NCBI GenBank assembly: GCA_024137785.1
Contig: JAHRHZ010000267.1
Coordinates: forward strand, 6,986,512-7,050,511
Direction: 5' to 3'
Source: Ginglymostoma cirratum
Lineage: Eukaryota
DNA: 64,000 nt
Positions 3,337-57,517 of the stretch are shown piece after piece. A program made the position numbers and the translations under genes. Below the pieces are notes generated by a model. That model was not told where the DNA came from. It ran no database searches and saw only the letters and a list, made by a program, of their open reading frames with translations. Within the stretch, counting starts at the first letter, position 1; each line of letters starts with the position of its first letter.

Positions 3337-3475
3337 GTTCTGAGGAAAGGTCACCGGACCCGAAACGTTAACTATATTTTCCTTCACAGTTGCTGCCAGA
3401 CCTGTTGAGCGTTTCCAGCAACTTTGTTCTTAGTTCCTGATTTACAGCATCTGCAATTCTTTCGGCTTTTATTTA
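3337..3475 (+). mobile_element. Penelope-derived terminal fragment with minimal hammerhead motif
   Basis: gttCTGAGGA-aaGGTCaccgGACCc-GAAA-CGTT-aac followed by the cacag.tgctgccagacctg.tgagc..ttccagcaa tail shared with 25899 and 51480. Confidence 0.75.
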
Positions 3476-6400
3476 TTATTTCACTCATTGTTTAAAACAC
3501 ATCTTTAACTGGTTACAAGGAAGAGAAGACTTGAAAAGGAATTAAGATGCCCAGAGCGATTCATTCACATCCATCGCAAATTTGGCTAAGCTCCCTGAGT
3601 TTCTTACCTGCAAGGAGAAACTCACTAAAGGAAGAAATCAAATCTTGAGAGGCCAAGGATTTAGCTAAAAGTTACTCAGCTGCAGAAGCTGAAAAGAAAG
3701 CAGTATAGGATCTGAAGATCAAGGCAGAAAAATCTCGGACCATGCTTGCTCAGGAAACACAACTGTTTGAGGCAACTCAAGAGTATGTGAAACTAGGAAA
3801 TTCTTTCACAAATGGTGAACATTCATAAGAGTGCTTTGTACAAGTTTCAGAGTAGCTGTGCCGTGTTTTACAAAATATTCAGGAAATTAAAGACATTCCT
3901 TTACCTGTAAAGACCATGAGGGACAAAACAGTAAAGCTCATTGCAGATATCACCAGTTCGCAATTGAGAATTATAAATTCAGCTCCATTGTGAGCAAGAG
4001 AGAAGCCAACTGAAAACAAAAAAAAATGCTGGAGATTCCAGCATCTGCAGTAATTTTTGCCCCTACATTAAGTTTCTAGGCTTACCTGAAAACATGTAGC
4101 ACACTATCAAACAACTCCCCAAAGAAATCCAGCAGTCATAACTGCATTTAAGTAAGAGGCTTTTGATTTAAGGAAGGATTTGGTTTCATTTAAATGGCGT
4201 GTTTTGTTTTAAACATATTACTGTATTAATATTGGCCTTCTGAGAAAACATGGCAATTTGTCAAAATTTGGTTGTTAACTGTCCTTTTTCACTGATATTA
4301 ACAGATGTACATTTCTGTGACTGTAACATAGTCAATATTGCATAGAGATCCATAAATGCATATGCCCTGTGTATCAACATCACTGGTGCTTAAGTAACAG
4401 CTTTGTCATTCTTCAAATATAGAAATTTGACTAAATGTTTAAAATATGGCTCCTCACATCCTGCAGACTGAAAGCTCCTGGCATGTGAAGAAATCTGGAA
4501 TATTAACAAAGAACCGTTATGGTATTTCTGTAAGAGTAAAAACCTGATCGGAGGATATCAGACACCGAGTTCCAGCAAAGATGGGCATTGATTTGGGACA
4601 AACAACATGTTTAAAGGTTTAGTAGAGGAAAAGAAAGTTGGAGATAAAGTTGTAGCTTGCAAAAGGTTGTATGATCAAGGCTTGACTTTGAAGAATAGGA
4701 GCACTACTAGCAGATTCTTAGGAGAGAGGGACACGACATGAATAGAAAGCTAACAATATCAGCTAACAAGAAAATTGGTTATCTGCGCTACATCAAAGAG
4801 GCTATTATTTCAGACACATTTTAACGTCTATTTCAACTCTCAACTAAAGGAAGACATGGCACTAGCCATGCACTTTGTAAGTTCAGTCAGTAATGTGTTT
4901 GTCTGGGAGTGGGTAGCTACAACGAAGTTCATATATCTATTTAAAATGGTGGTCTCTAGTGCTTTCAATGGATTGTTCCAAGAATCTGTAGACCATATGG
5001 TCAAGACCGACTTTCAGTTTACACTGAGACTCTGCTAAATTAGCATTTGGGAACAGCAACAATAATTTGAAGAGCAAGGTCATAAACCAAGGATATTCCA
5101 CAATCAGATTATATTCACCAAATACAGCTATTACAGCTAATTTTGAATTTTCTGATGATGTGAATGTATAGTCAGACATAAACTGGGTATGTCAACCTTC
5201 ACTGAAACGTGTAAACTACTGGGTACGTAGACTGACAAATCAGAGTTGGATTTCAATGTGTATAAATATTGAGCAATTCATAACGAAGCATGCACCAGTA
5301 AGCACGTACATGTAGGATTCTATTTTGTTTGTGCCTCTACTGTCAGAGTTCAAAAACATAACACTGTGGGACTAGTATTCTGCGTTTGGTTTCTGTGAGG
5401 CAATTATCAATAAAGCAAATTACTGGGATGCACTGGAACTTCAAGTCAGAACAAATTGTAATTATACATTGTAGTGATCAATAATAGGGCCAATTTTGCA
5501 GCAAGACAGCAGTTTTAATCATCAGCTCCAGATGCTAACAGGATTGTAAAAGTGGGATCAGGGCAGCTGCAGGTTTTTTAGAAAGTCACGCTGAAAATCT
5601 CAAATGAATAAAACATATTTTCACTGGAAAAAATGGGAAGAAAGAATAAAGCAGGTCTTCAAAATAATTTAAAAAAGATTCAATAGAACAATCTTTCCAA
5701 AGTAGGATAACAGGGAAAGCAGCACAGAAAACAAATAGATTATTCAACAAAAGCTGCATTAACATCAGAAGTTAGAAAAATATTTTCTCATATTGCACAG
5801 ATGTGTATCAGATAAGCAGAGAGCATAAAAACACAAAATGGTGCAAATTACCAGCATCGGAAAAGACCGATTAACATTTCACTCTTCATGTTAACGCACA
5901 TGTGTAACATTTAGTGTGTATCCATCATCACAGGACTGAACGTTCTATTAAGATTCTTAGAAATGATGATGTAAGTGAGGAAAGAGAGAAAAACAACTGA
6001 TTTTCCAGTTGAAAATGTTGGGTGATGTAAATCAGTTGGGTAGGGAAATAGAAGAGAAATAGAAAGATTCATAAAAACAAAAGGTGGTTCATTCAGAAAA
6101 CCCTCCTATCCAGCAAAAAAATAGAAGACTTGTATTTGTATAGTGTTTTACATGATGATCTCAAAGCAATTTATACCAATCAAGTACTTTTAAAGTGTAG
6201 ACATTATTGCAATGTAGGAAGCCTGTTCCGTGAAAGGATAAAAGAATATGAAAATCACCAGTTAGAAATACTCAAACAGAAATGAAACAACATTAAAAGG
6301 GGACTAGAAATATAATATATCACATTGCATTCTCTCAAATTCCCCCATTGATGCCATTCTCAGATGAAGAATTTCCCTCTTTTCTGGATGTTAACAGATC

Positions 6401-6992
6401 TGCCTAATAACATTAATGTCCATGTCTGTTAAGAAAATGGAAGATACCTTTTTGTTCTTGCACACTGGAATATCTTTTGTAACAAACAGGGACAATTATT
6501 TTCCATCCTCAACAAGCCTGACTGTGCACAGGCCTCAGGTGAAGCAGCTCTTTGAAAATAAATAGCAGAAAAGACTATGTACATAATACTTCTTTTTCTA
6601 CCCTGAAGTACCCATTGGGAAATCATCATTTAATCCATGGACAGTAGCTAAGTATGGGAAGGAATAGCAATTCACAAGAAGTGTTTTTTTTTTGGTAAGT
6701 CACCACCAGTTTTTTGCCAGGCAGTCTAAAATTAGTTTTGGTCTCAAATCTAATATGGGCTGGTTTTAGAGTTCAGTTTAAAACACATAGGCATCCAGTT
6801 GGAATATTATTCTACTCATTTCTTCTATAATTAGCATTATTTAGACTCTTAGTATCTAAAATTAAGTTGCAAGGTACATAATAAAATGAGGTAAGCCATC
6901 ATGAAAATCGAGGACAAAATTTTGCAAACATTGGTAATATTCAGCAGGTTAAACAGAATCTGTGGAGAGACAATCAGGGCTGAGAGGTTATT

Positions 6993-7646
6993 GAGATAAC
7001 ATGGTGTAGAGCTGGATGAACACAGCAGGCCAAGCAGCATCAGAGGAGCAGGAAAGCCGACGTTTCAGGTTGAGACCCTTCTTCAGAAATGGGGGAGGGG
7101 AAGGGGATTCTGAAATAAATAGGGAGAGAAGGGGAGGCGGATAGAAGATGGATAAAAGAGAAGATAGGTGGAGAGGAGACAGACAGGTCAAAGAGGCGGG
7201 GTGGGAGCCAGTAAAGGTGAATGTAGGTGGGGAGCTAGGGAGGGGCTAGGTTGGTTCAGGGAGGACGGGGAGGACGGACAGGTCAAGGAGGAGGGATGAC
7301 GTTTGTGGGTAGATCCTACCCACTAACCTCATCCCGTCTCCTTGACCTGTCCATCGTCCCTGGACTGACCTAGCCCCTCCCTAGCTCCCCACCTACATTC
7401 ACCTTTACTGGCTCCAACCCCGCCCCTTCGACCTGTCTGTCTCCTCTCCACCTATCTTCTCCTTTATCCATCTTCTATCCGCCTCCCCTTCTCTCCCTAT
7501 TTATTTCAGAATCCCCTTCCCCTCCCCCTCTTCTGAAGAAGGGTCTCGAACTGAAACGTCAGCTTTCCTGCTCGGCCTGCTGTGCTCATCCAGCTCTACA
7601 TCGTGTTATCTCAGATTCTCCAGCATCGGCAGTTCCTACTATCTCT
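6993..7646. mobile_element. Penelope-derived foldback element (two inverted terminal arms, ~310 bp each)
   Basis: 6993-7310 is the reverse complement of ~7313-7612 (centre gtgggtagatcctacccac); the arms match the PLE end at 57125-57440; flanked by gagaggttatt / gaaaggttatt. Confidence 0.85.
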
Positions 7647-8363
7647 GAAAGGTTATTAACCTGAAACATTAACTCCATTTTATTGTCCACAGAAACTACC
7701 TGATTTAATGGGTATTTCCAACATTCTCTGTTTTTCGAGCTTAAATTTTGGCTTTTCCAACTGATCAGGTAGCACTGTCGACCAATCTTAATAGTCTCTC
7801 CAAGCAGAGAACTGAAAGAGGCCAACCAGTTTATTCTACCAATCAAACAGATCATGGCTGCCTGTACCTCAACTCCATTTATCAGTCTTTGATAGTAAAA
7901 CAGTTATTGTCACTTAACGAAAGAACAAAATTATTTTTGTTCCCATACACTGTTTTTGTAAACTGTGTACACAGACAAAATCTCTTTGCTCCTCTATATT
8001 GCCTGCTTTATCACTATTAACAAGCAAACTGATTTTTCATTCTTGGATCCAAAATGAATGACATCATTGCTTCCCCCACACTGCACTCCATCTGCCAGGT
8101 GTGCCCACTCACTTAATCTGTCTCTATCCCTTTGCAACTTCCTACTCCTACCCATATCATTTTAAAAGAAAACCATGGGAAACTAAGAGGTTGAAATACA
8201 TGCAAAGGCCATTATCTATTTCCCACAATGTCATTAATTTGAGAAAATCATCATTTTGGGCAGTTTCTTCTATTCAGTAATATTTTCCTTCTGAAATCTT
8301 GAGATGTGTTATTTATACAAAGTTATGGCTGGATAATATATCAGAAGTGTCAGAAAGCTATGG

Positions 8364-8585
8364 TTGTGAAGTAACTTCACAGAGGCTGGTATTCTGTCAC
8401 CAAGTCACCCTTTATTTACACATGGAGAGTCCTTGACACTGATCCAGCTTCCTCAGAGTGAACAGGATGTCTGACAAACCTGTTTATATCTGTCAGCCAG
8501 AGCTCCCTGATTCGGCGAGATTAATAGCCCCAAGCAGGGAACTCATATTCTGAGGTCCACCTGGTTGATCTCATTACAATCACAA
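8364..8585 (-). repeat. 3' LTR of the Gypsy element
   Basis: Inverted termini ttgtgaagtaa...ttacaatcacaa, AATAAA on the minus strand, and an adjacent polypurine tract (minus cagagagagggata, ~8586-8600) directly after the integrase tail. Confidence 0.7.
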
Positions 8586-11209
8586 TATCCCTCTCTCTGA
8601 GTCCAAGGACACAGGTCGGTGCTTTTTATTGTAGCTCCTACTGGGACATTTTAACGCCAGGTCAGGTTCCTCCAACTCTGCCTCTGATAAAGACAGGGTG
8701 TAATGCACAGTAGCTGGCTTCTTGTACCTGGAGCGTCTTGGAAGAAATTTGTGCTCTTTTTCAGGCAGCAAAGGCATCAAGGCTGCATTCACTGTGTCCA
8801 TCTCAGATTCAGAGGTATCTTCAACACGTGGACAGGAAGAACCCATGGGTTCCGGAACAGTCAGAAAGGCAGCAGAGGATCTGCGCACGTTTTGCTCCCG
8901 CACTGTTTGCAAGTTTGCAGCTTTCATACTGTTCACATGCTTGTTCAGGTCCGTCACACCTACCTGGACTTTATGTCACAGGACCTGATGTCGACCATGC
9001 CTCTTATGCATGCAGCGCCATTCCAGTGGTTCCTACACTAAACTTCGGCCCCTGACGTAAACTGTCTCTCATGCTTACAGGAGTCCTGTGTCCAGCATTG
9101 ACATTTCTGCAGCTGTTCCACCCTCCCTGCAACCCCAGGTCTGGGAAGATCAGATTTAACCTGGTGCAGAGACTTCTCCCAATTAGCAACTCTGCTGGTT
9201 CTATCAATCAAATAGGAACCGGGACAATTTGGTATTTAGTGCAGTGTAGGTTGTTTCTTTAAGCTTGCCTTCAAAGTTTGGAGTGCTCTTTCTGCCAGAC
9301 CATTGGATGATGGATGATATAGAGGTGCTCTTATATTATGAATACTATTCGACTTTAGAAAAAAGTCAAATTTCCTACTGATAAACGATGGCCTGTTATC
9401 TGTGACCAACACTTCCAGCAGTCTCTGCATCGCAAAATATGCACGTAGTTTTTCTATCACTATCCTGGTGTTTGACGAATGAACTTCATACATGTTCAGC
9501 CATTTTGAGTGGGCCTCCACCATGACTAAGAACATTAAGCCCATAAAAAGACCTGCATTGTCAATGTATAACTGAGTCCAGGGCTTACTCGGTCATTCCC
9601 ACAGATGTGAGAGAGCTGCTGGCAGTAATTTTTATCCTTATTGGTAATCTGGGCACTGACCCACCAACACGGCTATGTCCTGGCCATTCGACATAACTTC
9701 TCACCAACATCTTTATTTTAGAAAACCCTGGATGACCTTGGTGGAAATTCAGCCATACCCGCGGCAACCTTTGCTCGGTACAATCACTCCTGCTCCCCAA
9801 AATAATATGCCATCCTCTACAGTGACCTGGTCTCACAGGTCCAAAAAAGTTTCAATTCTGGTGATCTCCCCACCACCAGCAGTTGTTTCAATTTTGTCAG
9901 GTCCAAATCTTTCTGCATCCAAAGTCTGATATTGTCAGCTGTGACTGGAAGGGTTTCCAGAAAATTTAAAACCATTATAGATTCCTCCAGTAGCGATATC
10001 ACAGGTGGTGTATCTGCCGGTGGGAGGCAGCTGAATGCATCCGCATTTGCTATTTGACTTCATGGATGGTATTCCAACTTGTAAACATATGCACTAATTA
10101 GAGCCCACCATTGAATTTGGTCTAAAGCTCTGGGCAGCACTGCCTTGTCTTTGTTAAGTAGACCTAGTAGGGTTTATGGTCCGTTATCATTACAAATTTA
10201 TATCTGTAAAGGTATTGGTAGAACTTCCTAACTCCGAATATGACTGCCAAACCTTTCTTCTCTATCTGGGCATATTTACGCTCTGCATTAGCCAAAGTCC
10301 TGGATGTATACGCTATTGGGCGTTACCCTCTATTGGGCCATCAATGAGCTAATACTACCCTGATGCTGTAAGGAAAGGCATCGCACATCAATCGCAGATC
10401 TCATTTGGGATCATAGCGTGCCAACACTTGAGAGGATGATAGCTGTTTCTTCACTTCCCTGCAAGCTGTAGCTCGGCTACGTGACCGTTTCCAAGGCTGA
10501 CCCATTTTTTTTAAACGAGTTGATGCAAAGGTGCCAGGATGGAGGCCAGGTTGTGTATAAACATTCCATAAGAGCTCACCAGTCCAAAGACAGACATAAG
10601 CTCTGGTATAGACATGGGAGCCAGGGCACTTTTAATCACCCTCACTTTGATCTTCCAACAAATGCAACCCGGTCTTGTCAACAATATAAGCCAAGTAGGT
10701 CACTTGGGGTGCCGAGAACACACATTTTTCTCTTCTTAGGCATATGGCCACCTGGGAGAAAAATCTAAGGACTATGTCCAAGTTCTCTAAGTGCTCCTTA
10801 TTGGTCTTCCCTGTTATTAGCACATTATCTAGATAAATGGCAACCTGGGGTAGACCTTGTAATAGGTTCTCCACCGTCCGCTGAAAAATTGCACAGGCTG
10901 ATGGTTGTCCATATGGCAGTCTCACATATTGGTACAAACCTTTATGGGTATTACTTGTCACACGCTTCTAGAAATCCTCATCTAACCACAATTGCAAGTT
11001 TGCATGGTTCATGTCCAGCTTTGTGAAGGACAGTCCCCCTGCCAGCTTTACGTATAAATCCTCTACGCGAGGGACTGGGTATTTGTCCAGCTGTGAAAAG
11101 CAGTTTAACATTTGTTTAAAATTTCCACAAAGGTGAATCGACCCGTCAGGTTTCACATTCAACACAGCTGGTGCTGTCTATTCCACAAACTGGACAGATT
11201 TGATGATTC

Positions 11210-11412
11210 AGAAAGAAAAGGTACTGAAGATGCTGGAGAATCCGAGATAACAAGCGTGGGGCTGGATGAACACAGCAGGCCAAGCAGCATCATAGGAGCA
11301 GGAAAGCTTGACGTTTCAGGCCTAGACCCTTCATCAGAAATGGGAGAGGGGAAGAGGGTTCTGAAATAAATAGGGAGAGAGAGGGGGAGGCGGATCCGCT
11401 TGTTATCTCGGA
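11210..11412 (-). mobile_element. Penelope-derived short insertion inside Gypsy pol, with hammerhead motif
   Basis: PLE terminus with a short inverted end (cgcttgttatctcggatt); imperfect TSD gatttgatgattc 11197-11209 / gatttgctgattc 11411-11423. Confidence 0.8.
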
Positions 11413-17249: not shown

Positions 17250-17445
17250 ACCAGAAAACACTCAACAAATCAGGAAGGATCTGTCAAGAGAGAAACAGTT
17301 AATTGTTTCAGGTAGTTCACTTTTTAAAATTAGAAGTTAATGAAAGGTTATCAATCTGAAATGTTAACCGTTTCTCGCTCCACAGATGCTGCCTGACCCT
17401 ATGAGTATTTCCAATATCTTCTTTTATTTCAGATTTTCAGCATTT
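17250..17445. mobile_element. Old Penelope-derived palindromic remnant
   Basis: Inverted arms gaaaacactcaac..gagagaaacagttaa..tttcagg and ctgaaatgttaac..ctccacagatgctgcctgacc; decayed hammerhead-like core. Confidence 0.55.
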
Positions 17446-19219
17446 ACTTTGCATCCAAGGGATGACTAGATTAGCACTTAACAGTTCAAGTTTCATCAAA
17501 CGAAGCCATTTAGCAAGCAGGAATTTACCAGCAAAGGCGAATAGCAAAACGGTGATCTCTAAATGAATAAGTGAAACCACAGCATACATGAATGATTAGA
17601 AGAATCCAACTCATCAGATCTTATTTTAGCTACATTTACACCTCAGAGGAACAGAAGTAGTTTCTTGTTAAGACACTGAATGAGACGAAGAGGAGTGATA
17701 AGTGGACTTCAGACTTTAATTTTGTTTCTTTGTCCACAGATACTGCCAGACCTGCTTAGTTGTCTCCATCACCTGAATACTTTACTTGTATTTTTAGCCA
17801 TCTGACTGCACATTTCTTTATTTTAAATTATAACTAACATTTAAAAAAAAGGGAAAGAATATATATATTTCACAAAATAAGGCAAAAAAATCAACCCCAT
17901 AATTAACAATGTAGAGTCCACATTAGAAAAGACAAAATCTGACTTATCTGGTGATCATGAAGCAGTAGTCCCGATGATTTGTTAAGTTGCACCAAAATGA
18001 ACTAAATCAGTAGAAAACTTTACGGAAGAGGAATTAAAGTCTTATTCAGTCAAATTCAGATGCATTCTTCTCTTCAGTACCATGTTGCAAATTTAGAAAA
18101 GAGCTTTAATAATTGCAAAGCTTAAAACGTTGTACATCCACGTGGTTCTGCTAATTAAATACATCCTAAATATATTTGTAGTTGCAATGTAAGTAGATGT
18201 GAATCCACCGCATGGCTCAGTCCCATTCTCGGCAAAGCAAGTGAGCAGACAATTCGTCTTGGTGGTGTCAAATGAGAGATACACGTTAACCAGGACAGTG
18301 AGAGAACTCAGTCCTTCCTTGTTGAGCAGAACCACAAATCTTTGACATCAACCTTCATGGACAAATGTCTCAACAGAAGGACAGCAAATGTTACAATGTT
18401 ATACAGTTTCATTATCAGCATCAAGTCTCTACAGTGAGGTTTGAACCCATAAAACATCCAACTCCAAAGCAGTGGCCATGGATAACATAAATATCCTCAA
18501 TGATATTCACTTGAAATTGATTTTTAAAACATAATTAGAAATACAGCTAGGACCAGGATTAGGCTAGAATTACATCAAAATTAATCAACTCAACTAAATA
18601 TAAGATTCAATTTCTAAGTATTGCAATGATTCTGATTGGGCATCAATTTACTTAGTGAGGGAGTAAATGGGTTGGCTAGAATCATACAAGAACAAATCCA
18701 AAGATAGGCTTCCAGAACTACTTCTATGATTCCTCCCTTCATTTCTTTCCCTTCAACCCCACTTGCACAAGACGAGTAGAGATGGTACCTCTATACCAGT
18801 ACTGAAGAGCTGGTTGCGTGTGGATCATTCCTTTTGAGAGTATCATTGCAAAGAATTGCTGATATTTAAATAGATCAAAAACTGATTCGGTATAATAATT
18901 GGCTTAAAAAGTGGCATTAGGACTTCAGGAATGGATAAGGCACAGATCTTTGGAACTTGGCTTATGTATTTGTTTGCACTCTGTTATAATAAGGATCACA
19001 CAAATCATAGAATTGTTGTGGTGCAGAATGACGCCATTTTCCCATTGTGCCTGCAATGGTTCTTCAAGCAAGTATCATTATTTAGTGTGAATCTCCTGCA
19101 TTCTTCCATAGCCTTGCACAATACTTCTATCCAAATAATCATCCAATGTCCTCTTGAATGCATCAATTGAATGTATTTCCACAATCTTTCCAAGCAGCGC
19201 ACTCTATACCCTAACTACT

Positions 19220-25898: not shown

Positions 25899-26005
25899 GT
25901 TCTGAGGAAGGGTCACTGGACCAGAAACGTTAACTCTGGTTTTTTCTTCACAGATGCTGCCAGACCTGTTGAGCTTTTCCAGCAACTTCTGCTTTTGTTG
26001 CCTTT
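25899..26005 (+). mobile_element. Penelope-derived terminus with hammerhead motif, inserted in a LINE relic
   Basis: gttCTGAGGA-agGGTCactgGACCa-GAAA-CGTT-aac plus the shared tail. Confidence 0.75.
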
Positions 26006-26199
26006 TTTGCAGTCTGTTGATGTTGGTACTCCCACAAATGGCAGGTTTTAGACTGTGGTTGTATATAATCCTGCTGCTGCTGCATACATAGAACTCTGCA
26101 TGTATGGCCATCCTAGACCTGTTTGAAATCTATCATGTTTCGCAGGGAGTGTCAACCAAACATGACAGCGGGCATCCTTAATGCGAAATCCCCATTCAG

Positions 26200-26416: not shown

Positions 26417-26423
26417 TTTAGAA

Positions 26424-26558
26424 AATTTCTGAAGAAGGGTCCAGACCCGAAACGTCAGCTTTCCTGCTCCTCTGATGCTGCCTGGCCTGGTGTGTTCATC
26501 CAGCTCTACACCTTGTTATCTCAGATTCTCCAGTATCGGTAGTTCCTACTACCTCTCA
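26424..26558 (+). mobile_element. Penelope-derived terminus with hammerhead motif
   Basis: tttCTGAAGA-aGGGTCcaGACCC-GAAA-CGTC-agc, then ttcctgctcctctgatgctg..ttgttatctcagattctccag. Confidence 0.8.
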
Positions 26559-33802: not shown

Positions 33803-35399
33803 CTGCAATGAGGTAGCACTAAGGTTTGCTTTATAGAAAAAATTTTTGCAGGATTCACACTCCCAGTTTATTTTCTTTAGGAAATAAACGCACACGAGAA
33901 TCCAAAAAAAATCAATCAAAAATCAATGCTACCAAATTTGAGGTGAGGCATCCGCTGCAATAACCATTTTATGAACATAAAACACTTCTCCCCATAATAC
34001 CCAAACATTGGCATCTTAATTTTTGATCACTCATCTTAATATCAAAACCTACTCATTATCCGAAATACTCAAGCAAAGTGGGATAAGGCGTGCTAGCAAG
34101 CAACAGGATGTGGGTTTGCCACATGATTCCCACCATACCAAGATCCTAATCTACCAAGGGAAGGAGAATTACACAAAATTGCATGGCTTCAAAACCGGAA
34201 CTATTCAGTACCAAGCAGGTGCCTCAGGAAAGTTTGCCATAGTACGACGCTCAACAGCAAACCTTTACTGTGAAATGTTGAATTAGCAAAGGGCAATGGT
34301 TCAGAGCTAATTCAGGACAGACATCAGGAAGTCTACGTACACAGTAATGAACTCCTGCAATGGGTTAGCAAGCGTTTGATTGAGACTTGTGTAACAAACA
34401 ACTCGACAGTACACTGATGGAAAGACAGTGGAAATATTTTTCAGGGCAAATTACAAGAAATCATAAGGGCACTTCTTCACCCAAAATTATTTAACAATAC
34501 AAAAAAATGCTGTTTGCCCATAAATCTACATACAGTCAGTTCAAAGACAGGAAAGGTTTAGGAAATGACTCTTTGTCCATCAGCTCAGCACAGAAATAGA
34601 ACTAGTCTTTAAACCAAATTAAACATATAAATCAGCCAGTTTATTAATACAAGCGGAATTCCCTGAATTACAAACTTTAAGTCGCTATCACCATCTGTTT
34701 TTTTTCACACACTGAACAATTCAACAAAATTCAGAAATACGTTTAAGCAGCAAATCCACAAATACAGCATTGATGTGAGTTGATTAAAAGGTAAATGACA
34801 TGGAACCTGAATCTCATGTTTGGAACTGAATGACGTATTATGCCTTTTCTCCTCTGGCAAGAGTGATGGGAAACAAAATGTTTAGGAAATCCCAACGCTC
34901 AACAGCAGGGTAGCTTGGTAATGCTATCGTGAGTGACAGGTCTCATAATTATAAGAGACCACCAGCACTGTGAATATGAGAAGTTTTCCAATTCCTCCTA
35001 TTTGTTCTAAGTCAAGACCATGGAGACACTGAATAGGCCATTAGTTGGAACAGACAACTGGGGCAAATACGACAAGCAATGTAAGATAGGGAATAGACAA
35101 AGTCCGGGAGGCAGAGATGTGAGCAGGGAGATGAGAATAGTTACATGCATGGTTGGAAGGAGGGCAGTGATTTTGTAGGGAAAGGAGAAAAACAAACTCA
35201 GGGCAAGGTCTGTGGAAGGGAAATAGGTACTGATGCTGGACATGGAGTCAGTGGGCACAGTCTCAGGACGTGTGCAACAAGTTGGACGAAGTGAACACAG
35301 ACGCTGGGGGTGGTGTGCAGGGTGTACAAGAGAGTAGCTGCATTCTGGGGGAGTGAGAGTGTTGTGAGGATGTGAGAGTGTTGCAGCGAAATGGGTGTG

Positions 35400-35735
35400 T
35401 TGCGGGGAGGAATACGTTTTGGAGAAGGAAGGGGTGTATGTTATGGGGAGGGGGTGCATTATGGGGAAGGGGGCATGTTATGGGGAGGGGCTGCATTATG
35501 GGGCTGGAGGCAGGGTGCACTATGGGGGAAGAGGATCGGGGTTATGTTATTGGGGAGTGGTTGTCTTATTGGGGAAGGCTGTGTGTTGTGGGGAGAGGGG
35601 TTGTGTTATGGGGAGGGGTGTATTAGGGGAGGTGGTGGGGTTATGTTTGATGGGGAGTGTGTTATGGCGAGGGGGTGTTATGGGGGGGTGGGGAGTCTGT
35701 TATAAGGGGAGGGGTTGTGTTATGGGAGGTGGGGC
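35400..35735 (+). repeat. Degenerate G-rich minisatellite (~TGTGTTATGGGGAGGGG)
   Basis: Many imperfect ~18-20 nt units of tg(t/c)(g/a)ttatgggga/ggggg. Confidence 0.8.
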
Positions 35736-35790
35736 AGTCTAAGCCTCGGGGCCTCCCTCACCCACTCCCCTTGCTTCCTACCTCACTCAC

Positions 35791-35841
35791 GCTCGACACT
35801 TCCATTTTTTGCCAGTGCTCCTCCAGCTGGACAAACGGCAT
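35791..35841 (-). CDS. Putative coding part of exon 1 (MPFVQLEEHWQKMEVSS), unidentified gene
   Basis: ATG at 35841 inside the CpG island; consensus donor |GTGAGT at 35790-35785 in phase 0; could instead be 5'UTR/uORF. Confidence 0.45.
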
Positions 35842-35843
35842 CC

Positions 35844-35876
35844 CTAGTCCCGCCGCCAGGCGCGGCCGTTGTTCAT
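35844..35876 (-). promoter_or_regulatory. Upstream ORF MNNGRAWRRD*
   Basis: caacATGAACAACGGCCGCGCCTGGCGGCGGGACTAG ends 2 nt before the next ATG. Confidence 0.45.
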
Positions 35877-36369
35877 GTTGCTGCTGCTGCGGCGGCGGGA
35901 GGGCACAGACTGGCAGCGGGCAGATTCTCAGCGTCAGCCACACAAACACCGCCAACGACTCGGACACAGACTGGGACAGCGCCCCTCCCCCATCGCCCAG
36001 CCGCCCACCCCCAACCTGACCCCACCCACTGCTACGTGGCTGACGTCAGCCCGCTAGTGACATCAGTGCGCCCCTCTCCTCCACCTGCCCCCTCAACCCC
36101 GCCCTTGCGCGCGGGAGAGCGCGCCCCCGCTACCGTCGTGCACACGCCCATTCAATTCCCAGGCACCAAGTTATCAATGCTAGCTGCGGATCAGTGGGTC
36201 TCTGAAATTAACCATGTGATCATCACTACATTTACCAACTTTAGGGATTAATACTCACTCCATTCATCACTGAAAAAATTAATACTTGTTCATTTTACCG
36301 CTTTTATGGATTAATACACCTCCGTTTATCAATTTCGGGGATAATACCCTGTGTCTCCAGTAGGATTGT

Positions 36370-38307: not shown

Positions 38308-39225
38308 AAGATTCAAGATGGCGACGGAGTAGCAGGGCTGCACGAAGATCTTGCCCGAGGTCATCCCTCCCACATGCTTTTTTTTAAACTTCTGCTCTTT
38401 TCCTTTCATTCTCTTTCCTTCGTTTATCTTTTCTTTGGAGCCTTTCGCAGTGGGTTAGTCAGCGAAATTGGTGCAGTCGCCAGAGCAGAACATGAATGGA
38501 AATGCGGCTCCTTCCAGCGGCAGTGGATGTGGCTCCTCACAGCAATTGGAGGCAATGGCAGCAGTGGCAGCAGGGATGTCCTCCTGGTGTTCAGGGCTGG
38601 CTACTGCAGCAGCGGCGCAGCTTCTGCGATTGGAGGTGGCTCCAGCAACAGCGGACATTTTGAGATGATGTTGCTGGCAACGCGATATCATGGAGGGGGA
38701 TGGTGGAGGGAGCAGCCAGAGTGGAACTCTTGGCGAGACAGCAGCAGAGCCAGAAGCTCCTGGTTTGAATTAGGCGCAGAGCGGTGTTTCTCTGCGTAAG
38801 TACGAAGCAACAGCAGTGGCGTTGGAGGCCTGGAGCCAGGATTCCGGGATGCAGCTGGTTGCGGGGCGAGCGCACGTTCAGCAAGGGACCCAGGATCAGC
38901 AACGGTGTCAGCTACTGTGGGCCCAGTGGCAAAGAAATGAGACCTAAAGAGTGGTGACCTCAACATGGAGGCACAAGCAGCGGCAAGGCAGCCGAGGAGT
39001 AGAGGCTATGCAGGACTCTCTTAGCTTTCCTGCTCCTCTGATGCTGCTTAGCCTGCTGTGTTCATCCAGCTCTATACCTTGTTATCTCTCTTTCAGTTAT
39101 ATCTTTTATCCTTTTCACCCCTAGTATTCAAAATGGTGCTGGATTGTGGTGACTGTTGAAGCTTTTTGCTGTAATTTACTGTATTATTCGCTGTACAATG
39201 CAACAGACAATAAATAAATCATTTA
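38308..39225 (+). mobile_element. GC-rich non-autonomous retroelement-like repeat (family unresolved), containing a PLE fragment at ~39023-39090
   Basis: Starts caagatggcgacg (YY1-like motif), has a gcagc-rich body, and ends ga.aataaataaatcattt like LINE 3' tails. Confidence 0.4.
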
Positions 39226-45725: not shown

Positions 45726-45984
45726 TTGATTTAATTTAAATGTATTATTATCACAAGTATCAAGATAGAGTGAAAAGTATTGTTTTGTGTGCTCTCCAGA
45801 CAAATCATACATTACACAAGTACATCAGGGTAACAGAACAGAATGAAGAATGTTGTGTATTCTGGTCATTGACGTTCTCCCAAATGATGGCAATGGCTAG
45901 TTGTATTATCTTATACCTTTCATATACGCTTCCTTACACAATATACCATACTGTGGTTAAAATAGCAGTTCAGATGCTTCAAAT

Positions 45985-47254: not shown

Positions 47255-47520
47255 ACGGTGGCTCAGTGATTAGCACTGCTGCCTCACAGCACCAGGGACA
47301 CATGTGAAGGTTGCACATTCTCCATGTCTGCATGGGTTTCTGCCACACGCTCCAGTTTCCTCCCGCAGTCTAAAGATGTGCAGGTTAGGTGGATTAGCTG
47401 TGGGAAATGCAGGATTACAGGAATATGGAGGGGAGTGAGTCTGGGTGGGATGGTCTTTGGAGGATTGGTGTGGATGGAAGCTTGGTGGGCCGAAAGGTCT
47501 GCTTCCAAACTGTAGGGATT
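47255..47520 (+). mobile_element. HE1-type SINE
   Basis: cggtggctcagtgattagcactgctgcctcacagcaccaggga head and HE1 core. Confidence 0.85.
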
Positions 47521-47524
47521 TTAT

Positions 47525-48600
47525 TCAAAGATTTGGCAAAGATCTGTAGCTTGGGTTGTGGGTGAGATTGTTGACTTGCTCGCCAAGCTGACTTGTTCTC
47601 GTTCAGACATTTTATCACCATGCTGGGTGACAACATCAGTGGAGCCTCCAATGAAGCGATGTTATTCTATTCCGCTTGGAATTTATACTCTTTGGACTGT
47701 TATGGCGAATACTGTCATTTCCTGTTTTGATCTGTATGGGTTTGCATACGAGGTCCAATTCTATGTGTTTGTTGATTGCATTATGGGTGGAGAACCATGC
47801 CTCTAGGAATTCCCACGTGTATCTATGTTTGGCTTGGGCTACTATGGTTACCTTGTCCCAGTTGAACTGATGGCCTTCATTGTCTGAGTGTACTGATGTT
47901 AAGGAGAGTTCGTCGTGCCGTTTTGCTGTGAGCTGAAATTTGTGTATTCTGATGGCTAGTTTCCTTCATATCTGTCCGATGTAATGTTTGTGGCAGCTGT
48001 TGCATGGTATTTTGTAAACCATGTTTGTTCTGCATATTGTGAGAATAGGGTCTTTAATCCTTGAAAGTGTTTGTTGTAGAGTGGCTGTGGGCTTGTGGGC
48101 CACCATGATTCCTAGTGGTCTTAGAAGTCCTGTTGTCAGTAGCCATATGTTCTTTAAGTATGGCAGTGTGGTCATTGTGTTAGGCCATACTGTCTCCTCC
48201 TGTTGTTTCTGCTTAGTAGGCATCTGCGGATGAAGTTGCAGCAATATCCGTTTATAGTGAAGATTTTGTATAGATGCTGTTCTTCTTTCCTGCATAGTTC
48301 TGGGGCGTTGCAGTGTGTCCTGGCCCATTTAGTGTCCTAATGGAGCTTTGTGGGTGTTGGGGTGGTTACTGTGGCAATCGAGGATTTGATCAGTATGGGT
48401 TGCTTTTCTGTATACTGATGTTTGGGACTCTCCCTTGGTCATATGCTCAACTTTAATAGCCAGAGAGGAAGTTGATTGTTGTTTGCTTCTTCCCTTACGA
48501 ATTTAATCCCTACGGCTACACTATTGATGAGATTTTGGGTCTCTTCTAATTTGTTGTGTTCTAATTTGTCGATTTTATGATTCTTCATGACCTTTGATGT
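47525..48600 (-). mobile_element. Penelope-like element (RT end and GIY-YIG endonuclease), second family
   Basis: ORF 47966-48328 reads TLPYLK..LLRPLGIMVAHKPT..KDP..NMVYKIPCNSCHKHYIGQ; decayed hammerhead-like motif at 47604-47641. Confidence 0.85.
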
Positions 48601-51469
48601 TACAAGGATGTTCTAAGGTGTCACAAGGAAAAATCTTTTGCGTTTAATCAGGTCACAGATGTCTTGCTTGCTAGAACAAGCCACATCATTCATTTCCTCG
48701 TCGACAGCTCGTAGGAGAGTTACAAAGTCTCATCAATTTATCTGTAACCTTCTGTACAACCTAGTTAACAAGTAATGTGGGCTGTAACAGAATAATGAAA
48801 GTGAGGCAGAACTGCAGCTGGCATCTCACAGACTCTGTGCTAGTTGCCTCTCAAGAATTTGGATGTTGCCTTTCTGTGTCAGATGAGAAGATAAGAGGTT
48901 GAGGCTGAAGGACCAAGAAGCAGTGATGGACATCATGGTGGCAAGAACAATTTGGCTGAAGGAAGAAGGCCCCTCCTCCTCTCTCAAGATCTGCTGGAGG
49001 AAGGGCAGTATGACAGATGATACCGCAGTAGCAAGGTTGAACGCTGAGAAGAAAATGCATACATTGTCACAGTTGTTTTGAGCTATGGGTGGAAGAGAAT
49101 TGTGGCTATGAAAAGTGCAAATATTTAATTAATTGAACTTACACTGGGAGTTCAGGACAAATAGCTATGGAGCTTTAAGCTAGTGACTTGTAAAGGAAGG
49201 TTAGTGACAAATCAGAGTTTGGATGACTGAGAAATGAACATTTGAGGACGTGAGTCATGATAGAAGCTTTGAAAGGAAAAGGGTTTGGTTAACTATTTTG
49301 GTAGGCATTGATGCCATGAAATTTGGGTTGATAAGGCACTGGTGAAATTAATAACCTTGTAGCACCAGGGAAGGGGAATGAGGGAAGGACAGAAACTGGG
49401 AGAGTTATTACAGAGTGAGAAATCAACAGAGGTTGGAAGTGAAGAGAACGGGGAGTTGGTCAGGTGTAGAGAAGAGAAGGAATGGTTTTAATGTTAAACA
49501 AATAAACATCACATTACCACCATCTGGTATTAGCGAAGGAAGTGGTGTATCATGGAGAAATGCAACGATGAGTTTGTTGTATTTACCTTTCTCAATGATC
49601 TTGGAATTAAGGAAGTATTTAGCTGAGGAAAGACGTATTATTACATCAGGGTTAATTTGTCAATGTGTAGCTGTATCAGTTACACACCCAAATGCACCAG
49701 AACAATTAGGTTGTCTTAAGTAGGTAGGAAGGCGGCAATTGAATGGTATTAAAAATATATCAGTTGAAATTTCCAGGATTTTGTCTCTGTGAAGAGGGAG
49801 CAACAGTGATACATATCTAAGGCTGGATGATGCATGGCTTGACAGGAATTTGGAGGTGATAGTGTTTCGTCCTTCTGGTACAAGGCATAATGTATGGCAT
49901 CCACATATTCTTGTGTATTACAGCAATAGATAAACAAACAGATCCCAGGTCAGTAATTTCACAGGAAACATCAGCACTGAACATCCATTCTCAAATATCT
50001 ACAGAACTAATACTTGCAAAACATAAAGTGTGCATTGAATGACGAGCTTAAAATAATTCTGTACCTGCTCATATGTAATTTTCATTGAGGTGTTTTCTTA
50101 AGTTAAAACCACATTGACTTCCTACCTAACTTCCTAACAAACAGTTGCCAACAAAATAACTTTTGCATAATCGTTTCTTATTTTGCCTACTTCTTTGAGA
50201 TAACAGAAAATAATAATAGATACAAATATACATATATATAGTGAAACAATAACAAACAATAGCTGTTTAAAAGATGTCGCAGATTAAAGTAGATACTGTA
50301 CAGCTCTTGCAAGATAGCATTAATGATAAACAACATGCAGATTTTGTCTGCTTAAGTGGTTTCTGACCAGACCTAACGTCTTCTACTTAACGGTGTGAAC
50401 AGGAACTCAATGTGGCTAAGTACCTTGTTCCAAAAAGCAACTCTAAAATCAACACTTTGATAAAGAGCATAGCTGTGCTATTTTTAGATTCTTTTTAAAC
50501 AGTGTTACCCTGTTGTGCAAGAACCTTTGCCCACGTAAAAGCAGTACAATTTAGAAAAAGAAATGTTGTTGAGTTTTAACAGTGAAGATTCAAAAGTTAA
50601 AATCCAATGTTGGAAACACTGAGATGAACACGAGGGATATTTTTGTCATGGTTTATGAACAAAAAGTATTGAAGTGGCACAAAGATTGGAGAGACAAGAA
50701 TGCTTACAATAAAAATATACCATCTAAAGCCAAAGCAATGAAGGGTGTAAAGAGTAACATCAATAAGAACAATTGTTGAGTGAGACAGTTATTAGGTTAG
50801 TTCAGAAACCAAATATCGGATAATACAATGAAACAAAAAAAAAGTACAAAACTAAGGGCTGTGTGGTTAAATACATGTCATATAGTGTGAAACTTCAGGC
50901 CATAACTTGGTAGGACCACACAGCTACTTAAGACTAAGATGCATATGTATTTGTTCAGTCAGGGGATGGTGAATCTTCAGAGTTCTATACCCGAGAGAGC
51001 TGTGTAAGTTCAATCATTGTGCTCAAGACAGAAACATATTAATTTCTAGATACAATTGGTATCAAAGAATATGAAGATAGTGGGCAAATTGTGTAGGATG
51101 AAATGATCATGATCTATTTGAATCGTGGAGCACAGGCTACTCCCACTCAGTTCCTACGTTCCTATGATGAAATCATCACATATGTTAGCATCTAAAATGG
51201 CATTGCTTGTGATACCTGGAAGCCAGATGATCTCCTGGGAGATGTGAGACAAAAAAAAAACAAGCTGATTTGGGGGGAAAAAAAAATTGAAACTTTTTTC
51301 TGATCTCACTGGATAATCAAAGCAAGTCAAGAAGACCACTCTTATGATAACTACCTTGCATATATTTCTATGCTAGTTAGAAACAAATTTTGGGTTGACT
51401 CAAATAATTTCGGTGTGTAAGTTTCATGTCACTACACCTATTATAAATTATCGTGAAGCATAACCAAAG

Positions 51470-51571
51470 ATAACAAAAACTGAAGTTGTTGGAAAAGCTC
51501 TGCAGGTCTGGCGCATCTGTGAAGAAAAAAACAGAGTTAACGTTTCAGGTCCGGTGACCCTTCCTCAGAAG
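51470..51571 (-). mobile_element. Penelope-derived terminus with hammerhead motif, next to a (GT)n/(AT)n microsatellite
   Basis: Minus ttCTGAGGA-agGGTCaccgGACCt-GAAA-CGTT-aac. Confidence 0.75.
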
Positions 51572-52657
51572 TGTGTGTGTGTGTGTGTATAAAATATATA
51601 TATAAAAGCCAAGCTAATATGGTTTTCACTGGAATGAGCCTCACTTAATCACCAGATTCAGAAGTAAAAGAGCAATCACTGAGCCTGAGCAGACAAGTAT
51701 GCATTTGTTAGTCATTTGCTCACGGGTATCATCAAACCCCAGGCTCAGACCAGCTCCAGTGAGAACTCCTTTAGAAAGCTCTGAAGCCAATGGCAGTATC
51801 CTATCACCTCCGCTGAGATCTGCGCACGAAGCACATAGACCCACAAAGCTTAGGGCAACAGTCTGTTGGCTAGTTGGGCTACCAAGAAAGTAAACGAATG
51901 GCTGAAAATGTCAATTGATGAGTCATTTTTCTCTTATGAAATGATAGAAATGCCTGGCGTATGGATAGCAGGCTGTTCATCAGTTTTATGGCCTTTGGTC
52001 TTTTCTGTCATCATTACTGAACTTATACAAGATGGTTATGTTCTGAAAGACCTTTGACTCAACATAAAACAGAAGATTCTTGAAAAACATCTCAGCTGTG
52101 ATTCAACTGCCACAGGGAAGAAAAACTCAAACAGAAAACCGTGGAAGTGTAATCTTGGGAGCAAAGAAGAAAATAGCTAAATATTTTAAGCATGTAGAGA
52201 ACTTGTATTTTTTTTAACAATGCTTGAAATGGACTTTTGGTGATATAACATCTAAAGGGGTAGCAAGAAATACTAGCCCACATGACCTAGCAATCTTGAA
52301 CCTAGAAGTACTAACAGATCCTGGTATATCTACACTATTATGACAACTGGTAGCTAAAGAAGACTACAGGATTTTCTGGAAAGAGATGTAACATGTTAGG
52401 AAGATTGTCCTGTCAGAAGGAAAATGCTGCCTTTACAAAATAACCAAACTCAAAAGGAAAGCACGTGGAATTGTCCTTGGAAGAACTGCATGATGCAAAC
52501 TGGGATCACAACAGTTGAATGGGACTGCCTACTTACCTCCATGAAATAGTCTTTATTATTTCTGCTATTCCACGTGTAATTCATAGTCATAACGACCACG
52601 GTTAGCCTGCTAATTCTGACTTGTGTTAAAGTAAAAATTACAAAAAGTAAAACTTTT

Positions 52658-52966
52658 AGCTCAGTGGTTAGCACTGCTGCCTCACAGCGCCAGGGACCTG
52701 CGTTCGATTCCACCCTTGGGTGACTATCTGTGTGGTGTTTGCACGCTCTCCCCGTGTCTGTGTGGGTTTCCTCCGGGTGCTCCAGTTTTCTCCCACTGTT
52801 CAAAGATGCGCAGGTTATGTGGCTTGGCCGTTCTAAATTGCCTGTAATGTTGAGGGATGTGGAGATGAGGTGGATTATCGGGGGATGGGCCTGGGTGGAA
52901 TGCTCTGAGGGTCGTTGTGGATTTGTTGGGCCGACGGGCCTGTTTCCACACTGTAAGGATTCTATG
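52658..52966 (+). mobile_element. HE1-type SINE
   Basis: gctcagtggttagcactgctgcctcacagcgccagggacctgcgttcgattcc..acactgtaaggattctatga. Confidence 0.9.
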
Positions 52967-54779
52967 ATGAATAACTTTCAGCCACTTAAGGTGTAATATT
53001 TTAAATTCAATGAAAGCAAAATATTGCAGATGCTAGAAACTGGAAATAAAATCTGAAACTGCCTGGATCTAATCATCAGGTCAAGTAGTACCTTGAGAAA
53101 AGAATGAAATAATTCAACAGCACAAAGTAGCACTTATAGCCAATTAATTGCAATCAAACAGAATGGTTGCTTGTGTTAGTTTTGTAGAACAAGTATTCAT
53201 CAAAGCTAAGTTAATCATGTTTGAATTTCTTGCACTGTCCCACCAATCTTTTTTTGAACACAAAGAGGCCTTTGAGTCTTTACACCTTTTGAAGCTTCAA
53301 TGGTCAGTCCCGGAATGCTTTGAATTATTAAATGTTCTTTCATGATCAACTCTTAAGATAACACCACAGTCTGTTTGTTCTGGCTGCAGTGAATCAATAA
53401 GAGCAAGCTCTGGGAGTCATCTTGTAAGGCTGTGGGTCCATTTTAGACACAGATAAAGACTTGCTTGCAAAATATTATAATTAGGCAGTTAAAGCAGGCT
53501 TAACATTAGAGTTATTTCAAATGGTTTTGCTGAACTAATTACAAAGTAAATTCTCTTGGAACATGAAGAGTATACAGTGAACATATTTTTACGAGGCTAA
53601 GTCTTGCCCTGGATTTACTGGGTATCTTGTTTCTTTGTACCATAATGTACTACTTTACCTTGTACCATTATTATAGTAATTTCCTTCACATCCCATTCGC
53701 TCTTGTACCTTGGCTCGTGATGCAATGTTCTACTTTAAGGTTCTCATTGTGCTTTCAAATGTATCCAAGGCCTTGCACTTCCTATCCCTAATCAACTCAA
53801 GTGCCACAGCCTGAAGATATTTACACTTGTCCTGTCATGGCCACTGGCAAATCTTCAATTTTTATTACTCTACTATTTATGTATGCGGTTTAGATTCCAA
53901 GACTAATTTCTGAAAATCCTTCATGAAATCGTCTCAGCTCTCCTTCCTCAAAGATGTTGAACCGTTTGCTTTGACTAGGTTTTCGGTCATCTGACTTAAT
54001 GGTATCTGGCTCAGACTAAATTGTGTTAGCTGACACTTCTTTAAAGTATCAGGTGACATTTTACTACATTAAAAACCATATATAAATACAAAGGTGCTGC
54101 TGTGGTAATGTAAATGTCAATATGCCATGAAGAATGAATAGACTTTTCACCCACTTTTCCAAGCCACCGGCTGAAATTCAATTTTTTTTAAACAAAAACT
54201 CAGTTCAGAACTTTCAAGTATTTTTTAATGAAGATCTAAGATGGTGAAAAGATCAATTTGGCTTTCACACAGAAGAACCTGCTATAATAGCAAACAAGCT
54301 GCTAAAACCTTTGCATTGAAAATTAACACACTAATTATGTGCTGTTCAGAATGCATTGCCAGTAATTTATTAAGACTAATTGAAAACACTTTGCAATCCC
54401 ATGAAATCTATAAGTGAGGAAGGCAAAAACAGGAAGGCCATGGCAATACCTCAAAGGGCAATACCTCAAAGTCCCGCACCGTCCTGAAGTGGACAAGTAC
54501 TATTCCCTCATAACTTTTGTATCAATACCCATGAATTTTGCAACAGCATTGTGGAAGTGGCAACATCACAAGGAATGGACTTAATGAACTTTACGAACTT
54601 TAAGAAGGCAGTACACCAATACATTTTCTTCACTCAGCTTGCAGCTAGTAACACCCAACCACGTCAGTGTTGGCCACAATTCTGAGAACAAAAAGAATAT
54701 AAATACTGAAGGCAGAAAATTACTGGAGCCTGAACATCATGGGCTTTGGCAATAAATGTGGCAGATATCGGGAGCAACT

Positions 54780-57517
54780 TGCTGCATCTTTTAACTAGGT
54801 TCCGGGTGCCGAGTTGAGTTTCGCACCAGGCATGGATATTCTGAAAGGGGAGGGTGAGCAGCCAGAGGTCATGGTACTAATGACAGACAGAAACAGAGAT
54901 GAGGTCCTGCGAACAGAATTTAGGAAGTTAGGTATGAACCCTGCAACCTCCAGGTTGTAATCTCAAGATTACTCCATGTACCATGTATTAAAGAGGCCAG
55001 AAATGAGAAAGTAATACAGTTGCATGCATGGCTATAGATGTGGTAAAAGATGGAGGTTTTCAGATGTCTGGATCATTGGGATCTCTTCCAGGGTAGGTGG
55101 GACCTGTACAAGCAGGACGGGTTACGCCTAAACTGGAGGAGAACCAATGTCCTGGCAGGCAGGTTTGCTTGTGTCACTGAAGAGGGTGGCCTGGGAGGGG
55201 AGCGCAGCCAGAGAAGTAGGTTAGTATATGGAGTGTTTGGAGAGATGAGAAGGGCTAAATCAAGTAAGTCTAGTAGGAGGGACAGGAGGCCAAGATTGAT
55301 GAACACAGTGGGACTGGTGGTCGATTTTAATGCAAAGACTATAACAGATTAAGTAAATAAGCTTAGAGCCGAGATCAGTATCTGGGTCTACTTTGTGGCA
55401 GCCATGACAGAAACGTGATTGAGAGAAAGGCAGGAGTGCGGCTCAATGTTCCAAGGTTGAGGTGTTTTTGGTGTTATAGAGGGGGATGTAAAACTGGAGT
55501 TGCATGACTAATTAAGTAGGAAGTCACAGCTGCACCAAAAAGGACATTTTGGAGGGCTCATTCACTGAGGCCATATGGGTAGAACACAGGATAAGAACGG
55601 TGCAGTCACTATGATGGGGTTATACGATAGGCCTCTCAATAGCCAGTGGGAATTAGAGGAACAGATAAGTAAGCAGATCATGGAAAGATGTAAAGATGGG
55701 GTTGTTGCACTGGGCTCAGTGATCGAAGTTTCAGTGGGGGAGCACTTTGGAACAGTGATAATAATTTTGTAAGATTTAAGATAGTTACAGAAAAGGATAA
55801 GTTTGGTCCTCAGGTAAAAGTGCTAAACTGGGGGAAGGCTTAATACAATGGTATGAGGCAGGAACTGGAGAAACTGGATTTGGGGCAAATCACATCTGAC
55901 ATGTGAGTCTTTCAAAAGCCAATTGACCAGAGTTTAAGACCAGCATGTTCCTGTAAGAAAGAAAGATAAAGATGGCAAAAGATGTTATAAGTTTAGTGAA
56001 AAAGAAAGTTTAGGAAACAGAAATCAAACAAGGCCTTTGAAAAGTATAAAGGAAGCACAAAAGAACTGAAGTAAAAAATTAGGAGGGCTAGAAGGGGCCA
56101 TGCAATGTCCTTGGCAAGTAGGATTAAAGAGAATCTCAAGGCATTTTGTATGTACGTTGGGGGTAACAGATTAACTAGAGAAAGGTTAGGTCCACTCAAG
56201 GACAGAGGAAGAAATTTGTGTGGAGCCAGATGAAGTTCGCGAGGTCCTCAACGAGTACTTCATATTGGTATTCATGAAGAAGAAAAACATGGATGCTGGT
56301 AGGGTTAAAAATGGGTGTGTTGATACTTTAAAGCATGTCAATATTAAGGAGGAGGGAGTATTAGTTTGTCTTGAAAAACATTAAAGTCCCTAGGGCCTGA
56401 GAGAATCTACCCCCGGATACTGAAGGAGGCAAGGGAGATTGCTAGGGCCTTGACAGAAATCTTTGTATCTTACTTAGCACGGGTGAGATCCAGGAAGACT
56501 AGAGAATAACCAATACTGTTCTCTTGTTCAAAAGGGCAACAGAAGTGGCAGGGAAATTATTAATGAAGATTTGTATGGTCAGGAATTACATGTATTTGAC
56601 AAAGACTGGACTTAAGGATGGTGAGCATGGCTTTATGCAGGGTGGTCTTGTTTCGCAAACTTGATTAAGTTTTTTGAGGAAATGACAAAGATGATTAATG
56701 AGGGTAAGGCAGTGCACATTGTCCTCACGGACTTTACTAAAGCATTTGCAAAGGTCCCTCATAGTAGGATGGTCCCAAAGGTTAAATCACATAGAAACCA
56801 TAGTGATTGGCAAATTTAATACAAAATTAGCTTAGCCATAGAGGATAGTGTTGTGGAAGGGTATTTTTCTGACTGGAGGTCTGTGACTAGTGATGTTCTG
56901 CAAGGATCACTGCTGGGCCATCTTTTGATTGTTATGTATGGATATGTAATATACAATTTGGATGAAACTATCAGCTGTCTGATTTAGAAGTTTGCAGATG
57001 ACTCAAAAATTGGAGGAGTTGTGGATAGTGAGGAACCAAGTCAAAGGATGCAGCAGGATATCGATCAGTTGGAAAGTTGGGCAGAGAAATGGCAGATGGA
57101 GTTTAATCCAAACAAGTGTGATTTGAGATAACAAGCATGGGGCTGGATGAACACAGCAGGTCAAGCAGCATCATAGGAGCAGGAAAACTTGACGTTTCGG
57201 GCCTAAACCCTTCATCAGAAATGGGGGAGGGGAAGAGGGTTCTGAAATAAATAGGGAGAGAGGGGGAGGCGGATAGAGGATGGATAGAGGAGAGGATAGG
57301 TGGAGAGGAGGCAGACAAGTCAAAGAGGCGGGGATGGAGCCAGTAAAGGTGAGTGTAGGTGGGGGGGTAGGGAGGAGATAGGTCAGTCCAGGGAGGACGG
57401 ACAGGTCAAGGGGGCGGGATGATGTTAGTAGGTAGGAGATGGGGGTGTGGCTTGGGGTGAGAGGAATAACAGGTTAGGGAGGTGGAGATGAGCTGGGCTG
57501 GTTTTGGGATGCGGTTG

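Follow-up and report, generated by a model that had tools for sequence, protein, structure and literature searches.

Minimal hammerhead ribozymes in the terminal repeats of two Penelope-like element families of Ginglymostoma cirratum, and what the ends of genomic copies suggest about the element RNA

Minimal type I hammerhead ribozymes have been described in the pseudo-long terminal repeats (pseudo-LTRs) of metazoan Penelope-like elements (PLEs), mostly as single dispersed copies with no loop 3, palindromic positions 15.2-16.2, an extra nucleotide between A9 and 10.1, and a G10.1-C11.1 pair (PMC4209133). For the endonuclease-bearing (EN+) PLEs, it has been stated that the role of the hammerhead is unclear. 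Here, we analyzed 64,000 nucleotides (nt) of Ginglymostoma cirratum DNA (assembly GCA_024137785.1, contig JAHRHZ010000267.1, positions 6,986,512 to 7,050,511 of the forward strand); this whole stretch is called the window and gives the coordinates used below. Similarly to the published ribozymes, the eight hammerhead motifs dispersed in the window are known minimal type I hammerheads, located in the terminal repeats of two PLE families, named A (subfamilies A1 and A2) and B. We propose that both families are coding, that the hammerhead likely makes up the first ~35 nt of their mRNA, and that the short orphan copies are likely cDNAs of this leader synthesized by the reverse transcriptase (RT) of the element. 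The motif itself is ordinary, and the interest lies in where the genomic copies begin and end. In its passages on PLE hammerheads, PMC4209133 neither places the motif at the transcript start, as is proposed here, nor maps the ends of the copies. In a literature search conducted outside subscription journals, Repbase notes and supplements, no paper was found that relates the starts of PLE copies to the hammerhead or its cut site.

The eight motifs reported by a first-pass annotation of the window were all found at their positions and strands, namely 3337-3372 (+), 7056-7089 (-), 7530-7563 (+), 11307-11340 (-), 25899-25934 (+), 26426-26459 (+), 51536-51570 (-) and 57188-57221 (-). They comprise a CTGA-N-GA core, an extra A, a hairpin and GAAA-CGT-(C/T), with CUGANGA, GAAA and NUH in type I order in 8/8 copies. 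A loose scan of the window returned 13 matches, the five additional ones lacking ACGT, while the strict motif occurred 170 times in 1,445,920 bases of fetched DNA versus twice after shuffling. None of the 20 matches of an Rfam scan of the window (E<=10) is a hammerhead, a result that carries no information on minimal variants. The type I core is invariant across the majority sequences of A1, A2 and B, which have no loop 3 and carry the extra nucleotide between A9 and 10.1 (an A), the G10.1-C11.1 pair and the palindromic 15.2-16.2 positions, a palindromic ACGU taking the place of stem III. This anatomy fits the published minimal PLE type, as the annotation had stated, with stems shorter than those of the S. 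mansoni PLE ribozymes (stem I, 2-3 versus 4-5 bp; stem II, 4-5 versus 7-8 bp; PMC4209133). In the window copies, G10.1-C11.1 is intact only at 26426 and 57188, and stem II at 7530 gives no fold. The short stem I that had been claimed is borne out by three of three pairs in four copies (3337, 11307, 25899 and 57188) and not in the other four, which have two of three. It reads GUU/AAC in B and UUU/AAG in A1, which differ by one U-G to G-C change, and in A2 only two of its pairs form. The two cut triplets that had been predicted both occur, family A having GUC and family B GUU. With the core base C3 taken as 0, cleavage is predicted just before +28 in A and just before +30 in B.

The family A unit (~3.5 kb) comprises, in this order, a hammerhead, a tail, an open reading frame (ORF; RT, Zn-knuckle linker, GIY-YIG), a 3' untranslated region with a TATA-like box, and again a hammerhead and a tail. 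Its young copies have open frames with RT, a CX4CxxC linker and GIY-YIG (one frame of 849 amino acids matching RVT_1 and GIY-YIG), and the hammerhead and tail run straight into the body, with the main ATG at +166, whereas the ORF of PAc, a Poseidon element of Anolis carolinensis, starts in stem II (PMC11167929). In 4/30 loci of family B, the hammerhead is preceded by a GIY-YIG frame that shares 58-67% identity with the family A frame. Similarly to the EN+ PLEs Neptune and Nematis (10.1101/2021.04.23.441226; PMC3846280), the elements have a single ORF with RT and C-terminal GIY-YIG (family A), a linker of the CX2-5CxxC type between the two (read in translations), a pseudo-LTR, partial tandems, an inverted 5' copy, an optional one-sided tail and target-site duplications (TSDs). 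Exact tail-pattern matches in the 4.36-Gb genome number 95,874 for A and 20,996 for B, and the 49 copies counted in 264 kb, chosen by place around the window, extrapolate roughly to several hundred thousand genome-wide.

Three further features of these elements were noticed. The A1 leader holds two short upstream frames before the main ATG (+3 to +160 from C3), one of which starts inside the ribozyme core; the first of their start codons would be lost upon cleavage at +28. Between the N-terminal domain and the RT of family A, residues ~190-290 form an Ala/Thr/Pro-rich low-complexity linker of variable repeat length (loci L252, L271, L278 and L280). The family B tail resembles, at ~+27 to +52 from C3, a branch point, a pyrimidine tract and a CAG, the family A tail being without AG; sense-strand copies of B in introns might serve as cryptic splice acceptors.

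Whereas the EN+ PLE accounts give a generic 5' truncation (10.1101/2021.04.23.441226; PMC3846280), the copies studied here have a fixed 5' boundary at the hammerhead. Gathered by their tail alone, 531 copies were obtained from the window and 180 loci, and 230/300 A and 190/231 B copies were kept (both arms of inverted pairs were counted, and a few duplicates may remain; the dropped copies, in overlapping classes, had an uncovered anchor, 12; lay at a locus edge, 14; stood beside N, 51; or were below 85% identity, 44). In this tail-anchored sample, the 5' ends of 77/230 A and 95/190 B copies lie at -8 to 0, where the termination rate per nt is 7.6% in A and 13.9% in B versus 0.2% and 0.09% within the pseudo-LTR upstream; between a third and a half of the copies begin at -5 to -1, and the longer truncations are scattered upstream. 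The short copies thus have the discrete ends that the annotation had expected, and not the random truncation that it had named as the outcome speaking against them. In both families, the pseudo-LTR similarity fades between -3 and -5, to reach background beyond -5, and no shared upstream leader or exon was found past the boundary in the sample. Read against the initiator (Inr) and TATA consensus motifs, both families carry a TATA-like box, located at -31 or -29, and an Inr-like YYANWYY whose A is at -4, their surrounding sequences being otherwise different. TATA- and Inr-like motifs have also been noted in one pseudo-LTR of Adineta (10.1101/2021.04.23.441226; PMC3846280). Nine of 30 loci chosen on the ORF start begin at -2 to -5 (scored by eye, one beside a gap), and in 10/20 mapped loci a body fragment is immediately followed by a leader copy, the body fragment itself often starting at the boundary, as expected if the RT had reached the RNA end and jumped. 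An extra G stands at 5/10 of these junctions (3/8 counted, two more by eye), and a T-run of at least four opens 22/81 short versus 0/69 long A copies. A second 5'-end hot spot at -421 was considered and rejected, being found in 2/38 long junctions only, with the others scattered. Some template-jump junctions recur across loci (L258, L272 and L276 at body +397; L254 and L264 at +457/458; L260 and L261 at -421), which possibly reflects extra RT entry sites or shared descent.

The 3' ends form two clusters separated by 30-40 nt (100 and 102 of 230 copies in A; 73 and 82 of 190 in B). PAc likewise has two 3' ends and a 30-40 nt tail downstream of the hammerhead, a signature tied to two internal priming sites (PMC11167929). 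TSDs of at least 12 bp flank 7/40 A and 20/48 B short solo copies, versus 0/195 and 0/235 controls. About half of all copies (98/230 A and 100/190 B) have an inverted partner on their 5' side, a known PLE trait (10.1101/2021.04.23.441226; PMC3846280), and the insertion of PAc on both strands (PMC11167929) fits the head-to-head pairs found here. We propose that RNA polymerase II starts at the Inr-like A at -4 and, by analogy with the anole element, that the RT would be primed internally on the RNA, at the tail. If primed at the 5' tail, the RT would run off the RNA after 95-140 nt, thereby generating the short copies, and priming at the 3' tail would generate the long, randomly truncated ones. 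The cDNAs that reach the RNA end might then jump to another template, yielding tandems, or join a second cDNA coming from the other DNA end, yielding head-to-head pairs. The GUC ribozyme of family A would cut a small share of the templates, thereby removing the cap; the uncut RNA, which is the main template in PAc (PMC11167929), would be so here too.

Several points weigh against the placing of the transcript start at the boundary. The boundary might instead be a splice acceptor, or a place where the RT often drops off or switches template on a circular RNA or a longer read-through transcript, an alternative that is favoured by the CAG preceding stem I in family B and by D. virilis, in which the start site lies upstream of an intron ending at the 5' side of helix I (PMC4209133), so that the layout is not universal. 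It also agrees with the reads of one poly(A) RNA run, in which no RNA 5' end was seen and no start or end peak exceeded the threshold. In that run, 51,407 of 12.9 million reads matched a family A stretch, 86% of them continuing into unrelated sequence, and a family A terminus or body is present in ~0.4% of the reads, for the most part within other transcripts; this shows that the termini are transcribed as passengers, and is uninformative on start site or cleavage. A second run yielded only 15 reads. Such passenger transcription would favour a weak or protein-gated ribozyme. Furthermore, the extra G is not enriched in the wider sample (it precedes the A at -4 in 8/24 A copies, and stands at -5 in 7/40 and 8/50 solo copies only), and because of this missing excess a cap signature at the junctions is only suggested. 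Family B, of which a GIY-YIG frame was retrieved, is putatively coding. Yet family A has no AG at the boundary, and the absence of a shared upstream exon in the sampled copies of both families led us to reject the splice acceptor. A stall caused by structure would be expected on the 3' side of the fold, and the equal TATA/Inr spacing of the two families, the non-templated G and the extra T at the boundary also speak against the alternative, which we regard as unlikely. The start at the boundary being retained, the short copies could still form a separate retrozyme or short interspersed nuclear element (SINE)-like family, transcribed, self-processed and mobilised in trans, as the annotation had put forward with the element at 57125 as the helper. 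Discrete ends with TSDs, a very high copy number, the abundance of the termini in poly(A) reads and the derivation of vertebrate retrozymes from PLE pseudo-LTRs (10.64898/2026.07.22.740005) would all agree with it, and the non-LTR retrozymes share the type I hammerhead, the PLE pseudo-LTR link and the short non-coding copies (PMC7229834; 10.64898/2026.07.22.740005). However, these retrozymes are tandem repeats with one, mostly canonical, hammerhead per unit, whereas the hammerheads reported here are dispersed, minimal and collinear with the ends of coding PLEs. No recurring tandem unit was found among 232 motifs (25 same-strand neighbours at <1 kb, with 24 different spacings, in ~1.3 Mb of long loci), and no alignment column separates short from long copies at p<0.01 (17 versus 31 in A1, 60 versus 38 in A2, 95 versus 17 in B). 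The short copies lack the upstream TATA-like box, the long coding copies share their boundary, and the large majority of the matched poly(A) reads run on into unrelated sequence. The copy at 57125-58047 cannot be the helper because it has kept only the endonuclease part (it is 5'-truncated at 58047 and has no RT), and family B has a GIY-YIG frame of its own. The core was not found to be more conserved than its flanks, but decays about as fast in dispersed copies: non-CpG mismatches in core versus tail are 5/660 versus 40/3168 in A1, 23/1098 versus 171/5298 in A2, and 55/1327 versus 232/5812 in B, the small core deficit in A being perhaps an alignment bias. Mutations affect 11%, 22% and 30% of the stem III CpG positions in A1, A2 and B, and the full core is intact in 45/66 A1, 38/111 A2 and 32/134 B copies, hence mostly broken in the older subfamilies. 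The inserted copies decay neutrally, and conservation acts on the source elements, which differ in N7, H17, loop 2 and stem I but share an invariant core. The retrozyme or SINE reading is thus largely refuted in this sample and, in our opinion, very improbable.

A trace of cleavage was looked for by counting, genome-wide, exact matches to three non-consensus bases followed by 26 consensus bases. In family A, these counts cover +25 (136), +27 (148), +28, the cut itself (622), +30 (191) and +31 (218). Inspection confirmed true junctions in 23/30 cases at +28 (three being ambiguous inverted seams), 9/10 at +27 and 17/20 at +31. The corrected count at +28 is 477, versus 187 expected under a uniform model or 245 with strong A microhomology, a ~2.5-fold excess corresponding to ~650 copies of ~81,000, or ~1%. 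In family B, whose cut product starts with AA like that of A, no peak occurs at the cut: the count is 70 at +30, with 9/20 inspected cases being indels, versus 53 at +33, with 3/10. Judging from these junctions, rare cleavage in vivo is likely, and it is on balance probable that the GUC ribozyme of family A cuts the templates of ~1% of the copies, removing the cap, while the GUU ribozyme of B leaves no such trace. As a separate observation, in loci L198 and L292 the body just before the main ATG is joined to a copy starting at the predicted cut. On the opposite side of the argument, the cut zone is only mildly raised in the tail-anchored sample (10/230 A copies at +27 to +29; hazard of 1.7% versus 0.9% in the core), no minimum-energy fold of monomers or dimers obtained by folding and cofolding gives a hammerhead, and the anole study describes no RNA reads ending at the cut and a cleavage that is dispensable in vitro (PMC11167929). 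It may be added that the present 5' junctions, enriched at the cut in one family, are genomic, unlike the RNA ends considered in PAc (PMC11167929). The excess at +28 could also arise from stalling of the RT at the base of an alternative hairpin, in which the core UGAUG pairs with CGUCA and whose base lies in family A at +28/+29 (the monomer folds pair +1 to +5 with +24 to +28 in A1, and 0 to +3 with +26 to +29 in A2). This hairpin is weak or absent in B, so that the contrast between the families would fit a stall as well, and a few A2 copies start at +29. Nevertheless, the counts inside the hairpin stem (+25 and +27) are at background, the peak falls on nucleotide 1.1 itself, and most RT passes run through the hairpin to -4. 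We take the stall, which bears on the cleavage step only, to be a serious though less likely alternative.

The copies of the window illustrate these various ends. Three short copies of family B begin at stem I, namely 3333..3471 (+; long tail, 14-bp TSD with one mismatch), 25899..26012 (+; 3' end at ~26000-26012) and 51472..51573 (-; adjoining a (CA)n run), and the A2 short copy 26425..26551 (+) begins at the Inr-like A. A head-to-head pair of A2 copies consists of a left arm at 6992..7312 (-; ~217 nt of pseudo-LTR, short tail) and a right arm at 7314..7643 (+; decayed stem II, long tail). The A1 copy 11216..11395 (-), preceded by a short inverted tail piece, is truncated 56 nt upstream of the core. 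The other A1 element, 57125..58047 (-), combines a Zn-knuckle linker and GIY-YIG fragment (57552-58025) with a 3' part made of a pseudo-LTR with TATA-like and Inr-like motifs, the hammerhead and a short tail. The size of 100-200 bp without ORF, given by the annotation for most copies, does not apply to the 6992-7643 pair, with arms of ~320 bp, nor to 57125-58047, with its GIY-YIG fragment. Two family A tails have no core: the 5' end of 39023..39088 (+) is exactly that of the predicted cleavage product (nucleotide 1.1), and the A1 tail 63310..63407 (-) has lost its 5' part in an assembly gap. Two old B-like tails at 17358-17422 and 17690-17804 (+), of 70-79% identity, have an unrecognisable core. 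Another decayed B-like tail lies at 7659-7735 (+), directly behind the family A head-to-head pair, and 62563-62768 holds two head-to-head copies of a third, older PLE-like terminus, in which the hammerhead cores have decayed. Outside these elements, we noticed a tRNA-like match at 831-903 (-; Rfam RF00005, 40.3 bits), which is probably the head portion of a SINE derived from a tRNA; a 131-amino-acid open frame at 8580-8975 (-) resembling a host exon, with no Pfam match; LTR-type retroelement fragments with integrase core and RT frames at 9236-10967 (-), adjoined by the family A copy 11216-11395; and G-rich repeats of 18-37 nt followed by a GC-rich stretch at 35350-36250, possibly a host promoter.

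Together, the copy ends point to a start site and to two priming sites, and allow the share of cut templates to be estimated, in sister families differing in their cut triplet. From them we tentatively advance a wider proposal, to which we give somewhat less than even credence, in which the genome would be a fossil read-out of the ends of PLE RNAs: the hammerhead would be a capped leader, the short copies would be strong-stop-like cDNAs from which template jumps start and the terminal repeats are rebuilt, the GUC ribozyme would act as a rare decapping switch in vivo, and the GUU family would have tuned its ribozyme off. If true, this read-out would provide evidence that a minimal PLE hammerhead cleaves in vivo, and would argue against circular RNA as the main template. 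Since the sister families have different cut triplets, the role of the hammerhead in these PLEs is testable with defined constructs.

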